From: Minisyncoccota bacterium
GTDB taxonomy: Bacteria > Patescibacteriota > Minisyncoccia > Phycocordibacterales > UBA12079
Length of the DNA stretch: 64,000 bases
Assembly (NCBI GenBank): GCA_028689435.1
Contig: JAQTWD010000001.1
Coordinates: 96 to 64,095 of the forward strand
Reading direction: 5' to 3'
Within the stretch, counting starts at the first letter, position 1, and each line of letters starts with the position of its first letter. A program made the position numbers and the translations under genes. The notes below the pieces were generated by a model. The model had not been told where the DNA came from and ran no database searches. It worked only from the letters and a program-made list of their open reading frames with translations. Positions 13,470 through 15,062 of this stretch are shown piece after piece.

Positions 13470-15062
13470 GAAATATTCCACGAACAGCTTCCGCTACCCG
13501 TGCCTTGTTACGACTTACTCCCTGTCACTGAATTTACCTTAGTCCGTCATAAAGACGACTGTCGGGTACTCCCAGCTCCCTTGAGTTGACGGGCGGTGAG
13601 TACAAGACTTGAGAACATATTCACCGCTGTATGCTGACCAGCGATTACTAGCGATTCCAACTTCATGGGGTCGAGTTGCAGACCTCAATCCGAACTGGGG
13701 CTGTGTTTAAAGGATTGGCTCAGGGTTACCCCGTCGCGACCCGTTGTCACAGCCATTGTATTATGTGTGTAGCCCAAGATATCTAGGGACATGCTGATCT
13801 GGCGTCATCCCCACCTTCCTCCCAGCCTTTTGTTCGCAAGCGAACAAAAGGCAAGTACTAAGTAATAAGTATTTAGTAATAAGTAAAAAATTTCCGAAGG
13901 AAATTTTTTCGTCTCTTACTACTTATACCTTACTACTTCGCACTCGACTTTTGCGCTTGTGCGCAAAAGGCTAGGCAGTCTCGCCTGACACTTGTAACAG
14001 ACGATAAGGGTTGCGTTCGTTTCCCCACTTAAGGGAACAGCTCAAGCCACGAACTGACGACGACCATGCATCACCTGTCTAGCCGTTAGGACTTTCTGTT
14101 TCCAGAAAGACGTAAACTAGATGTCTAATCTTGGTGAGGTTTTTCGCGTATCATCGAATTAAACCACGTAATCCACCGCTTGTGCAAGTCCCCGTCTATT
14201 CCTTTGAGTTTTAGCCTTGCGGCCGTACTACCCAGGCGGTTCTCTTAACGCGTTAGCTTCGCCTCTTAGAGGGTCGATACTCCAAAAAGCTAGAGAACAT
14301 CGTTTAGGGCGTGGACTACTGGGGTATCTAATCCCATTCGCTACCCACGCTTTCGTGTTTCAGTGTCAGAAATGCGCCAGTGAATTGCCTTCGCTTTTGG
14401 TGTTCCCCATAATATCAACGGATTTCACCCCTACACTATGAGTTCCATTCACCCCTCACACTCTCTAGTTTTGCCGTTTCCTTTGCGCTCCCCGGGTTGA
14501 GCCCGGGTCTTTAACAAAAGACTAACAAAACCACCTACACACCCTTTACGCCCAATAATTCCGGATAACGCTCGGGGCACTCGTATTACCGCTGCTGCTG
14601 GCACGAGTTTAGCAACCCCTTATTCATAAGCTAATGTCAATAAACTTCTTCACTTATAAAAGACCTTTACACTCCGAAGAGCTTCATCAATCACGCTGTG
14701 TCGCTCCGTCAGGCTTTCGCCCATTGCGGAAGATTCTCGACTGCGGCCTCCCGTAGGAGTATGGTCCGTGTCTCAGTACCATCGGTGGGGGCCAGGCTCT
14801 CACCTCCCCTAAGCGTCATAGCCTTGGTAGTCCATTACACTACCAACAAGCTGATACTCCGCAGGCCGTTCCTAAAGCGATAAATCTTTACTCTTGCGAG
14901 ACCATCTGGAATTATCCTACCTTTCGATAAGTTATGCCAGACTTTAGGGTACGTTCCTACGTGTTACTACCTCGTTCGCCGTGGGTCTAAACCCACTCGA
15001 CTTGCATGCCTAATCCACACAGCCAGCGTTCATCCTGAGCTAGGATCAAACTCTAATTAAAA
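13470..15062 (-). rRNA. rrs: 16S rRNA gene (with a 142-nt insertion; unlinked from 23S/5S)
   Basis: Reverse complement holds AGAGTTTGATCCTAGCTCAG at the 5' end, GTGCCAGCAGCAGCGGTAATAC, and AAGTCGTAACAAGG plus helix 45 with a GGAA loop at the 3' end. Confidence 0.9.
13827..13968. repeat. three-hairpin palindromic insertion at the tip of 16S helix 40 (AGTAAGTA-type element)
   Basis: Replaces the short apical loop between CCTCCCAGCC and GGCTAGGCAGTC. Structure: TTTTGTTCGCAAGCGAACAAAA + long AGTAATAAGTAAAAAATTTCCGAAGGAAATTTTTT... hairpin + TTTTGCGCTTGTGCGCAAAA. Confidence 0.75.

Follow-up and report, generated by a model that had tools for sequence, protein, structure and literature searches.

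Base pairing between the Shine-Dalgarno (SD) sequence of an mRNA and the anti-Shine-Dalgarno (aSD) sequence of 16S rRNA is the textbook route by which bacterial ribosomes find start codons. Mitochondria translate leaderless mRNAs, and in mammals the mitochondrial small-subunit rRNA has no aSD. Bacteroidota-type initiation works with leaders that are A-rich and unstructured, and SDs are very rare there. Bacteria without an aSD have been described among the Flavobacteriia (Chryseobacterium, Elizabethkingia, Riemerella and Blattabacterium), Mycoplasma, Carsonella and other tiny-genome symbionts (Lim 2012; Amin 2018, PMC6107228; Nikolaeva 2020, PMC7782861), and groups in which the aSD is present but little used have also been noted (Amin et al., PMC6107228). 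Closest to the locus described here, the aSD motif CCTCCT was reported absent in a subgroup of Parcubacteria overlapping the uL1-less group (Tsurumaki et al. 2022, RNA 28:1041; PMC9297842); the accessible text of that report deals with the presence or absence of the motif only, and does not cover what replaces it, the trailer, SD statistics or leaderless promoters. In Paceibacteria rplA, the gene for uL1, is absent and era mostly absent (PMC12641178), while Era, which reads GAUCACCUCC, is missing from most CPR (PMC10582724).

Here we analysed a 64-kb stretch of DNA (64,000 nucleotides, hereafter the window), in which the Rfam model RF00177 matches a full-length 16S rRNA gene on the minus strand (15061→13466, model positions 1-1533, 1334 bits, above the gathering score). 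This is the only 16S gene in the window. All pairs of helix 45 are formed in the Rfam alignment, the RNA beyond it is GGAAUAUUUCAAAAUGAAC, and GGAAUAUUUCAAAA is aligned opposite the consensus GGAUcACCUCCUUu. As originally predicted, no CCUCC follows helix 45, and the absence of plus-strand ggagg first claimed for 13200-13480 extends over the whole of 13200-15061, so that CCTCC in the RNA sense is found nowhere from the start of the 16S to 266 nt beyond its end. An assembly built separately, Logan contig L001 (SRR22315507), agrees with the window at every position from helix 45 to the end of the trailer (100% identity), although both may stem from one set of reads. The aSD of the window 16S is genuinely lost.

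Across public genomes and metagenomes, CCUCC is missing from 132 of the 133 distinct tails found behind the same helix 45, the exception being a clade member (L175) with a canonical tail. In a scan of GTDB species, all 27 loci with the helix-45 sequence CACGxGUAGC were without CCUCC, and 91 loci from other groups, including Magasanik-, Moran-, Falkow- and Uhrbacteria and Saccharibacteria, carried AUCACCUCCUUUCU; the initial pattern of the genome scan was too broad and drew in many Actinomycetota, which were retained as aSD-bearing comparators. The same helix-45 stem occurred only in loci named Taylor-, Nomura- or Jorgensenbacteria, Paceibacteria, Minisyncoccia or Parcubacteria group. The window 16S is 90.9% identical to that of its closest relative (L219) and 79-85% identical to those of other relatives and, judged by this identity and the helix-45 stem, the source bacterium is a Parcubacteria/Paceibacteria-type member of the CPR. 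The comparison with 16S tails of related CPR, foreseen in the original prediction, upheld its reading of a true loss: this is a trait of essentially the whole clade sharing this helix 45 and is not peculiar to one genome. The 133 clade tails are conserved at position 1 (A, 100%), position 4 (A, 87%), position 7 (U, 98%) and position 8 (C, 79%).

Since Tsurumaki et al. (2022; PMC9297842) already reported this phenomenon for the clade in question, with the aSD motif gone from the 16S 3' end, the window genome is a further member of a known aSD-less kind. No Ribosomal_L1 match was found with Pfam among 54 of the 61 window ORFs, all but seven short ones, and the rplK-rplA-rplJ region lies outside the window. 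The aSD-less bacteria outside the CPR are alike in having a 13-nt tail after helix 45 without CCUCCU, no SD enrichment upstream of ORFs and no compensating variant SD, and in them aSD loss goes together with genome reduction and missing ribosomal proteins (PMC6107228, PMC7782861). However, they are independent lineages, for which neither a conserved replacement hairpin nor a leaderless signature is described by Amin 2018 or Nikolaeva 2020.

Table 1. Features of the 16S unit and of start regions, in window coordinates.
Feature	Position	Strand	Basis or remark
16S rRNA gene	13466..15061	-	limits set by Rfam RF00177
Helix 45, CACGGGUAGC-GGAA-GCUGUUCGUG	13479..13502	-	Rfam alignment; stem sequence marks the aSD-less clade
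16S 3' tail GAAUAUUUCAAAAUGAAC, standing where GAUCACCUCCUUA would be	13461..13478	-	Rfam alignment, sequence search
Mini-hairpin UUCA-AAA-UGAA	13462..13472	-	Rfam 3' end (13466) inside loop
Trailer hairpin CUGUUUGUUUUCUUACGAGGAAACAG	13436..13461	-	MFE fold; homologous hairpins in L219, L033, L060, L104
GGUUGAU, window form of the GGUCGAU trailer motif	13421..13427	-	tail listings
aSD look-alike GGUUGAUUAUCACUUCUUAAG	13427→13407	-	3' part is one arm of hairpin 13420→13402
Trailer hairpin UAUCACUU-CUU-AAGUGAUA	13402..13420	-	MFE fold; holds 3' part of look-alike
Processing stem (pre-16S leader-trailer), 3' strand GGGAAUGAAACGAAACAAAAGAAAGA	13318..13343	-	leader/trailer cofold; near-identical in L219
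Processing stem, 5' strand UCUUGUUUCGUUUCAUUUC, in 16S leader	15102..15120	-	leader/trailer cofold
Promoter-like site TTGCCT-16-TATAAT upstream of 16S leader	15337..15364	-	consensus scan only
Hairpin + U-run GUCGCC-AAGA-GGUGGC-UUUUUAUU, end of trailer	13262..13285	-	read by eye; not in scanner's list
Promoter-like site of next gene, TTGACA-17-TATTAT	13262→13234	-	consensus scan
-10-like box TTTAAT, ends 7 nt before rpsL ATG (57164)	57172..57177	-	candidate leaderless transcript
Module as at rpsL, ahead of secF	16990-16995		candidate
TATAAT + extended TGc, ends 7 nt before ATG 27073 (glycosyltransferase)	27060..27065	+	candidate leaderless transcript
TGaTATAAT, ends 7 nt before GTG 41469 (SBF-type transporter)	41477..41482	-	candidate leaderless transcript
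Boxes similar to TGaTATAAT	43548-43553, 59569-59574, 19573-19578, 55940-55945		
AAGGAGG, 9 nt before ATG of orphan ORF 44844-45089	44828..44834	+	
Further strong SD-like motifs	6933-6938 (+), 61703-61708 (+), 45715-45720 (-), 38444-38448 (-)		

The mRNA half of the pairing was assessed upstream of nine core genes (rpsL, rpsG, fusA, tuf, rpsJ, rplC, rplD, rplW and rplB), none of which has a GGAG, GAGG or AGGA core, compared with nine out of nine for their E. coli orthologues. Checked by eye, infC, rplT, murC and prfB have no upstream SD, and prfB has no SD-dependent frameshift site. The expectation that core genes would be SD-less therefore stands for those tested, but it is not valid for all ORFs of the window, five orphans having strong SD-like motifs (Table 1). 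With one and the same longest-ORF caller, a crude one that underlies all ORF statistics here, as do genes situated near 16S loci, a 4-mer SD core preceded 5 of 61 window ORFs against 2.7 in shuffles, and 28 of 60 E. coli ORFs against 8.3; by this crude measure the aSD-bearing CPR loci reached 10.7% against a null of 8.8%. This method was readopted only after the E. coli control had validated it for DNA of moderate GC. Cross-locus SD statistics with offset or coding controls were discarded, as the GC-rich Actinomycetota used as positive controls gave no SD enrichment, and in motif-to-ATG spacing over every motif occurrence the signal was drowned by internal ATGs.

SD use seems equally weak in the aSD-bearing sister groups, which suggests that independence from the SD came first and loss of the sequence later. 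The G content of leaders is 10-12%, compared with 20% in coding sequence, and the 40-nt MFE is -1.7 at starts versus about -4 elsewhere (Wilcoxon P = 9e-7); low structure at start codons is found in most bacteria and is not specific to SD-less organisms. The window clade is like the Bacteroidota type in being SD-poor with unstructured leaders, as are aSD-bearing CPR loci by the crude measure, but CCUCC is retained in the former and gone in the window clade.

Strong AAGGAG-type motifs at SD spacing precede 5 of the 61 window ORFs, where 0.49 would be expected and none of 2000 shuffles reached five. All five ORFs are orphans with no family matches in Pfam, NCBIfam or PHROGs, and their GC and GC3 are ordinary, so a foreign origin was rejected on composition. 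These motifs count against our best explanation, as it is hard to see what an aSD-less ribosome would do with them.

CPR genomes usually carry one set of rRNA genes. If CCUCC were kept by another 16S gene or by some of the ribosomes, and these translated the SD-bearing ORFs, the window copy would not be the sole one or not the main one; the correct spacing of the five motifs, the canonical tail that L175 retains behind the same helix 45 and the two 16S types of Alteromonas (Amin et al., PMC6107228) are all in keeping with this. We nevertheless regard it as very unlikely, given the single 16S in 64 kb, the 132 of 133 clade tails without CCUCC and no locus with both types, the absence of SDs from all nine core translation genes, and the loss seen in complete CPR genomes by Tsurumaki et al. 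(PMC9297842).

The chance is slimmer still that the aSD has been displaced or altered, with mature 16S reaching as far as the look-alike (CACUUCUUA, 60 nt further on) or a novel leader motif serving as the partner of the present tail. In favour of this, CUUCUU and AAGGAG could base-pair if one G·U pair is allowed, and part of the tail is complementary to UUUGAAAU, with which the leaders of rpsL and secF end. However, tested on the -25..+3 regions, neither the tail (z = -0.36) nor the look-alike (z = +0.66) outdid its shuffled versions in pairing, and an alternative SD complementary to either was rejected on these grounds; nor did Amin et al. (PMC6107228) find any variant aSD with a variant SD to match. 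The original prediction had doubted the look-alike as half of a hairpin, and rightly so, in that its 3' part is locked in the 8-bp hairpin at 13420→13402. Its sequence is not conserved even in L219, where a hairpin at the matching position has an unrelated sequence (CUGAAUUUUCUAGC...), or in other relatives, only the position of the hairpin being kept; on comparison of these trailers, the look-alike was rejected as a relic or displaced aSD. The preceding trailer hairpin (13436..13461) shows a G-C to A-U compensation in L219, and the GGUCGAU trailer motif lies 40-70 nt past helix 45 in aSD-less and aSD-bearing relatives alike.

We see hardly any prospect of a CCUCC-bearing gene end further downstream, cut off from helix 45 by an intervening sequence of the sort present in other CPR rRNA genes, even though the window 16S and 23S hold large insertions and LAGLIDADG genes lie near the 23S. 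There is no RNA-sense CCTCC within 266 nt past helix 45, and the same arrangement recurs in more than 130 relatives. Furthermore, the processing stem closes at 13343-13318 and is followed by a hairpin with a U-run, likely the terminator of the 16S unit, and by the next gene's promoter; with the promoter-like site upstream of the leader, these elements make the 16S a closed transcription unit into which a downstream 3' exon would not fit. An artefact of assembly or base calling or a decaying pseudogene, which nothing favours but the rarity of the trait among bacteria overall, is next to inconceivable in view of the full-length, high-scoring Rfam match and because L219 shares the tail, the trailer hairpins and the processing stem, compensatory changes included. 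A miscalled base at 13470-13480 is itself unlikely because the Logan contig, perhaps from the same reads, is identical and the pattern is clade-wide.

With a genuine loss as the preferred reading, the sequence now standing in place of the aSD can be considered. The tail has a predicted mini-hairpin, and each of its four pairs shows changes on both sides in a covariance-model alignment built from 93 distinct sequences. This alignment gave 20 cells with such changes against 2.0±1.2 in shuffles, with 95.7% of cells paired, a count to be read with the caution that the alignment is fitted to the model and that many double changes may stem from few events; a MAFFT tail alignment, ungapped and with the hairpin arms out of register, was replaced by it. 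Such a hairpin is present in 104 of 133 clade tails compared with 40±5 for shuffled tails, while around one fifth of clade tails, e.g., the AUCAUUUUUUUAAAA family, are hairpin-free. Alone it is thermodynamically marginal (0 to -2 kcal/mol). Its start offset equals that of the hairpin formed in aSD-bearing loci by CCUCC and the trailer GGAG. We infer that selection continues to act on the tail, in the form of a covarying hairpin where the aSD used to be. The tail would then not have merely decayed, GGA..A and a small covarying hairpin having been kept at the former CCUCC:GGAG position, and the mini-hairpin may be a maturation element for the pre-16S 3' end whose 5' arm has been freed from spelling CCUCC. 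Homology would place the mature 3' end inside the loop of the mini-hairpin or shortly after it, at about 13466-13461.

Leaderless genes of bacteria are by convention recognised in genomes by a -10 box set at a short, constant spacing from the start codon. In the clade loci, a -10-like box with a gap of 6-8 nt to the start codon precedes 96 of 697 ORFs (~14%), where 25-47 would be expected (P = 3e-10), and an extended TGn accompanies 32 of these 96 boxes compared with 54 of 463 elsewhere (Fisher P = 1e-6). Clade and window ORFs together give 106 such cases from 76 protein families and 69 loci, with a -35-like hexamer (at most two mismatches) in 31 of 106 versus 14 of 106 in the control (P = 7e-4). 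In the window alone the signal is no more than suggestive, 11 of 61 ORFs having the box against about 6.6 expected (P = 0.07), with TGn in 5 of 11 versus 11 of 96. The signature is absent from the aSD-bearing CPR loci (14/195, about 11 expected) and from the E. coli control (0/61). An artefact of the ORF caller was rejected as the source of the peak, since an in-frame TAA within TATAAT would favour gaps of 2, 5, 8 and 11 nt and the actual peak is at 6-7. The leaderless-rich Actinomycetota and Deinococcus are alike in having a -10 box near the start codon but have kept their aSD; in the window clade the signature, from sequence alone, covers ~14% of ORFs.

These observations can be brought together in a mechanism in which start codons would be chosen without SD:aSD pairing by two routes. 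In the first, a sizeable minority of mRNAs would be leaderless, with transcription starting at or beside the AUG from a promoter whose -10 box ends 6-8 nt before the start codon, often with TGn and a -35 at 16-18 nt. In the second, the other mRNAs would have A/U-rich, G-poor leaders, the start region being the least structured part of the message. Loss of Era in most CPR, together with the already weak SD use of the aSD-bearing sisters, would lift the constraints on the aSD. We consider this explanation as a whole, i.e., clade-wide loss of the aSD, SD-free initiation on leaderless or unstructured mRNAs and a tail hairpin kept for maturation, to be probable. More tentatively, as something we would not yet wager on, the loss in Paceibacteria may be coupled to gene architecture, with at least ~1/7 of ORFs leaderless by a signature missing in aSD-bearing CPR relatives, and the former aSD arm may now be part of a freely covarying mini-hairpin serving 3'-end maturation and not mRNA binding. 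In the limited literature searched we found no earlier description of this coupling or of the mini-hairpin, and gene-finder studies might hold some.

As the loss has been documented for a Parcubacteria subgroup, the window genome is one more well-assembled example and no discovery. What is added here is a testable picture around the loss, comprising the tail hairpin, the weak SD use in sister groups and the leaderless signature in the aSD-less clade. For gene finding and start-codon calls in Paceibacteria-type genomes a ribosome-binding-site model is not to be relied on, and 16S annotations that end at helix 45 conceal the loss of the aSD. Clades without the rRNA half of the SD:aSD pairing reveal what else suffices for finding a start codon.

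The window carries a full-length bacterial 16S rRNA gene on the minus strand (15061→13466; Rfam 1334 bits, model positions 1-1533), whose 3' end reads, in the RNA sense, ...AAGUCGUAACAAGG-CACGGGUAGC-GGAA-GCUGUUCGUG-GAAUAUUUCAAAAUGAAC... Helix 45 (13502→13479) is intact, and GGAAUAUUUCAAAA stands opposite the consensus GGAUcACCUCCUUu in the Rfam alignment. CCTCC in the RNA sense is absent everywhere in 15061-13200, and a Logan contig (L001, SRR22315507), separately built but possibly from the same reads, agrees at 100% identity from helix 45 across the trailer and into the next gene. 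The original prediction that the 16S tail lacks the anti-Shine-Dalgarno (aSD) sequence CCUCC is therefore correct, and plus-strand ggagg was indeed the sequence to seek for a minus-strand gene.

As the 23S (36989→33291) and 5S (30733→30626) genes lie ~15 kb from the 16S gene (13466-15061), the rRNA genes are unlinked, the 16S being a transcription unit of its own, apart from the 23S-5S pair (30626-36989). The 16S has an insertion of ~150 nt (~13830-13975, minus strand) between GACUGCC and GGAGGAAGGUGGGGA, composed of short GUAAUAAGUA-like repeats and hairpins. The 23S (33291-36989, minus strand) is 3699 nt long against a 2925-position model, with several large insertions, and two LAGLIDADG endonuclease ORFs (31695-32183, 32594-33283) lie directly downstream. 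Between 23S and 5S (31102-31182, minus strand), ARAGORN reports a tRNA to which it assigns no identity, its anticodon (gagt) having four bases (Rfam tRNA 43.7 bits). After a tRNA-Ile(GAU) gene (12064-12138, minus strand) comes a tandem duplication of 161 nt (12112-12272, 12273-12433), each unit resembling a tRNA-like sequence split by a hairpin; within 11940-12551 the 5' half of the tRNA is present six times, and the tRNA 3' end occurs a second time at 11940-11961.

The loss of the aSD is real, inherited and clade-wide. GTDB species genomes were scanned with the universal GUCGUAACAAGG plus the window's helix-45 loop context, leaving the tail free, and 120 loci were returned. CCUCC was missing in all 27 loci whose helix 45 starts with CACG, those with names being Taylor-, Nomura- and Jorgensenbacteria, Paceibacteria/Paceibacterota, Minisyncoccia and 'Parcubacteria group', while 91 loci of other groups read AUCACCUCCUUUCU, including Actinomycetota, Chloroflexota and the CPR groups Magasanik-, Moran-, Falkow- and Uhrbacteria and Saccharibacteria. 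Scanning metagenomes for the clade's helix 45 added 120 further loci, and 132/133 distinct tails from both scans lack CCUCC, which supports the earlier interpretation as genuine loss. The single exception, a metagenomic clade member (L175, 590-650), retains the canonical tail AUCACCUCCUUUC after this type of helix 45, and a Ryanbacteria genome (L048, 5069-5123) has the partial tail AUUUUCUCCUAG; these two tails may be intermediate or ancestral states. The closest relative found, L219, has a 16S identity of 90.9% over 1592 nt.

Tsurumaki et al. (2022, PMC9297842) report CCTCCT in only 48% of Parcubacteria, with the lineages lacking it overlapping the group without ribosomal protein uL1; aSD loss is thus already described, and the window represents a further member of that subgroup. 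In Paceibacteria the uL1 gene rplA is absent and era mostly absent (2025 study, PMC12641178), and Era, the factor reading GAUCACCUCC, is gone from most CPR (PMC10582724). Flavobacteriia, Mycoplasma, Carsonella and other reduced genomes have lost the aSD independently (PMC6107228, PMC7782861).

A cofold of leader and trailer gives a long processing stem (leader 15120→15102 with trailer 13343→13318), so that a structured trailer of ~125 nt (z = -2.7) separates helix 45 from the stem. Two hairpins flank a GGUUGAU motif, and further hairpins lie beyond 13402, before the stem; relatives both with and without the aSD have GGUCGAU-like motifs 40-70 nt past helix 45. The aSD look-alike noted ~60 nt downstream of the tail reaches into a hairpin, as had been claimed: GGUUGAUUAUCACUUCUUAAG comprises the GGUUGAU motif and, from the hairpin that follows, the 5' arm and the loop. 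We rejected it as an aSD, since L219 keeps its neighbours, i.e., the tail, the first trailer hairpin (with G-C to A-U compensation) and the processing-stem strand, but its hairpin after GGUUG is unrelated in sequence, and the resemblance of CACUUCUUA is therefore coincidental. A downstream 3' exon of the 16S was also rejected, as there is no room for one: the 16S is a closed unit, because a promoter-like site lies upstream and the trailer ends in a hairpin and U-run, with a strong promoter-like site of the next gene immediately beyond.

Coordinates of features in the window
Feature	Position	Strand	Remarks
SD-like motif	6933-6938	+	before orphan ORF, start 6944+
SD-like motif	44828-44834	+	before orphan ORF, start 44844+
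SD-like motif	61703-61708	+	before orphan ORF, start 61714+
SD-like motif	45715-45720	-	before orphan ORF, start 45707-
SD-like motif	38444-38448	-	before orphan ORF, start 38436-
Promoter-like site upstream of 16S	15364→15337	-	preceded by upstream terminator
Mini-hairpin	13472→13462		UUCA-AAA-UGAA
Trailer hairpin	13461→13436	-	fold
GGUUGAU motif	13427→13421	-	trailer
Trailer hairpin after GGUUGAU	13420→13402	-	fold
Hairpin + U-run ending trailer	~13285→13262	-	read by eye
prfB (RF2; SPF + GGQ motifs)	8597-9484	-	single 295-aa ORF
Reverse transcriptase	21662-22891	+	retroelement-like region
bAvd accessory protein	24462-24824	-	retroelement-like region
Protein with Lcl C-terminal domain	24876-26204	-	retroelement-like region

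The tail sequence is not random. All 133 tails have A at position 1, and A at position 4, U at position 7 and C at position 8 are found in 87%, 98% and 79% of them, respectively. Most include a short palindrome, typically AAUAAUUCAAUUUGAAA, here called the mini-hairpin, whose arms covary (UUC/GAA, UCC/GGA, GUC/GAC, CUC/GAG); one tail family (AUCAUUUUUUUAAAA) is without it. In 104/133 tails a hairpin with 3 or more base pairs occupies this place; shuffling the tails gives 40±5. A covariance model from nine in-register sequences was used to align 100 loci (93 distinct), the alignment thus being fitted to the model; in it, two-sided changes occur at all four pairs (20 cells against 2.0±1.2 in column shuffles, 0/500 reaching 20), many of them possibly tracing to few events. 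Paired cells amount to 95.7% for the mini-hairpin alone, which is barely stable (0 to -2 kcal/mol), and to 98.9% for the whole 14-pair structure against 30-48% in slid registers. In 89/91 aSD-bearing loci a GGAG-type sequence lies 5-7 nt after CCUCC, and the CCUCC:GGAG hairpin begins 5 nt past the GG closing helix 45. Because the mini-hairpin starts at the same offset, it may be the positional homologue of this precursor hairpin, in which the aSD pairs with the trailer, its 5' arm having been freed from the CCUCC constraint. By analogy, we infer that the mature 16S 3' end would lie in or just past the mini-hairpin loop, at ~13466-13461.

The use of Shine-Dalgarno (SD) motifs was compared by applying one crude ORF caller to the window and to the E. 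coli str/S10/spc region and seeking a 4-mer SD core at -20..-4. This was found before 28/60 ORFs in E. coli (8.3 in shuffles) and 5/61 in the window (2.7 in shuffles), and before 9/9 and 0/9 orthologous core genes, respectively. In pairing with the -25..+3 regions, the real tail, the look-alike and the canonical aSD were none of them better than shuffled tails, and the regions preceding starts are less complementary to the canonical aSD (-3.5 kcal/mol) than coding sequence is (-5.0). Leaders contain 10-12% G against 20% in coding sequence, and structure in the message is lowest in the 40 nt centred on the start (-1.7 vs about -4 kcal/mol, P = 9e-7). Same-strand genes are spaced at a median of 178 nt with no overlaps. 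The prfB ORF lacks both the N-terminal segment and the SD-dependent +1 frameshift site known from E. coli RF2, its start lying past the point where that site would be; this fits an SD-independent picture, although many bacteria are without the device. In the same pipeline SD-like cores reached 10.7% in aSD-bearing CPR loci (8.8% null) and 14.1% in the aSD-less set (9.7%). Since they are near background also among Magasanik-, Moran-, Falkow- and Uhrbacteria loci retaining CCUCC (e.g. L002, L014, L028, L040, L097, L102), the data suggest that weak SD use preceded aSD loss.

Several repeats lie upstream of genes: the module aaattcgtagattcggattatat before rplB and rplC (46839-46870, 48672-48700), ttgagatttaaaYttttaatttgaaaY before secF and rpsL (16983-17015, 57165-57197), and G-free short tandem repeats upstream of 50700, 48025 and 49240 (tuf, agctataagctataagcta; rplD, taagaactaagaacta; rpsJ, actcactactcactac). 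Elsewhere, 19571-26204 holds diversity-generating retroelement-like components, and two paralogous proteins have a PaaX central (Cas2-like) domain (23004-23564 and 55360-55932, minus strand).

The lack of SD motifs noted for core genes holds for the nine core orthologues, but five other ORFs have AAGGAG(G) or GGAGG 5-10 nt before ATG, which does not fit a 16S without an aSD. Five such motifs were observed against 0.49 expected, with 0/2000 shuffles reaching five, and as every 4-mer match is also a 5-mer or longer, the distribution of SD cores in the window is bimodal. All five are intergenic, three share ACAAGGAG, and the ORFs, ordinary in composition, have no match in Pfam, NCBIfam or PHROGs. 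The S10 operon ends after rplB, and the usual place of rpsS (44844-45995) is taken by a convergent pair of orphan ORFs, each preceded by an SD-like motif. It is possible that the five ORFs were recently acquired, that the motif is a purine-rich element for some reader apart from the 16S, or that a second rrs copy serves them.

A -10 box at a short, fixed gap before the start codon is an accepted genomic signature of leaderless mRNAs, which have no need of an SD. TATAAT-like hexamers peak at a gap of 6-8 nt to the start codon in aSD-less clade loci (96/697 ORFs vs 25-47 expected, P = 3e-10), where an extended -10 TGn accompanies 32/96 of these cases vs 54/463 elsewhere (Fisher P = 1e-6). With the window ORFs included there are 106/758 cases, spread over 76 protein families and 69 loci, and a -35-like hexamer at a 16-18 nt spacer is found in 31/106 against 14/106 in the control (P = 7e-4). 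The peak is absent from aSD-bearing CPR loci (14/195 vs about 11 expected) and E. coli (0/61), and an artefact of the ORF caller was rejected, the positions of the peak differing from those that the caller could create. The window alone gives 11/61 ORFs vs about 6.6 expected (P = 0.07), with TGn in 5/11 vs 11/96; examples are rpsL, secF, a glycosyltransferase at 27073 and a transporter at 41469. Such geometry would place the transcription start at or adjoining the AUG, yielding a leaderless mRNA. A limited literature search found no earlier description of this signature for the clade.

The loss of the aSD is itself not new, being known for this Parcubacteria subgroup and having precedents elsewhere. 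What may be new, judged from sequence statistics, is the mini-hairpin where the aSD once stood, together with the leaderless signature of the clade, which probably starts translation by an SD-free route, in part perhaps on leaderless mRNAs.
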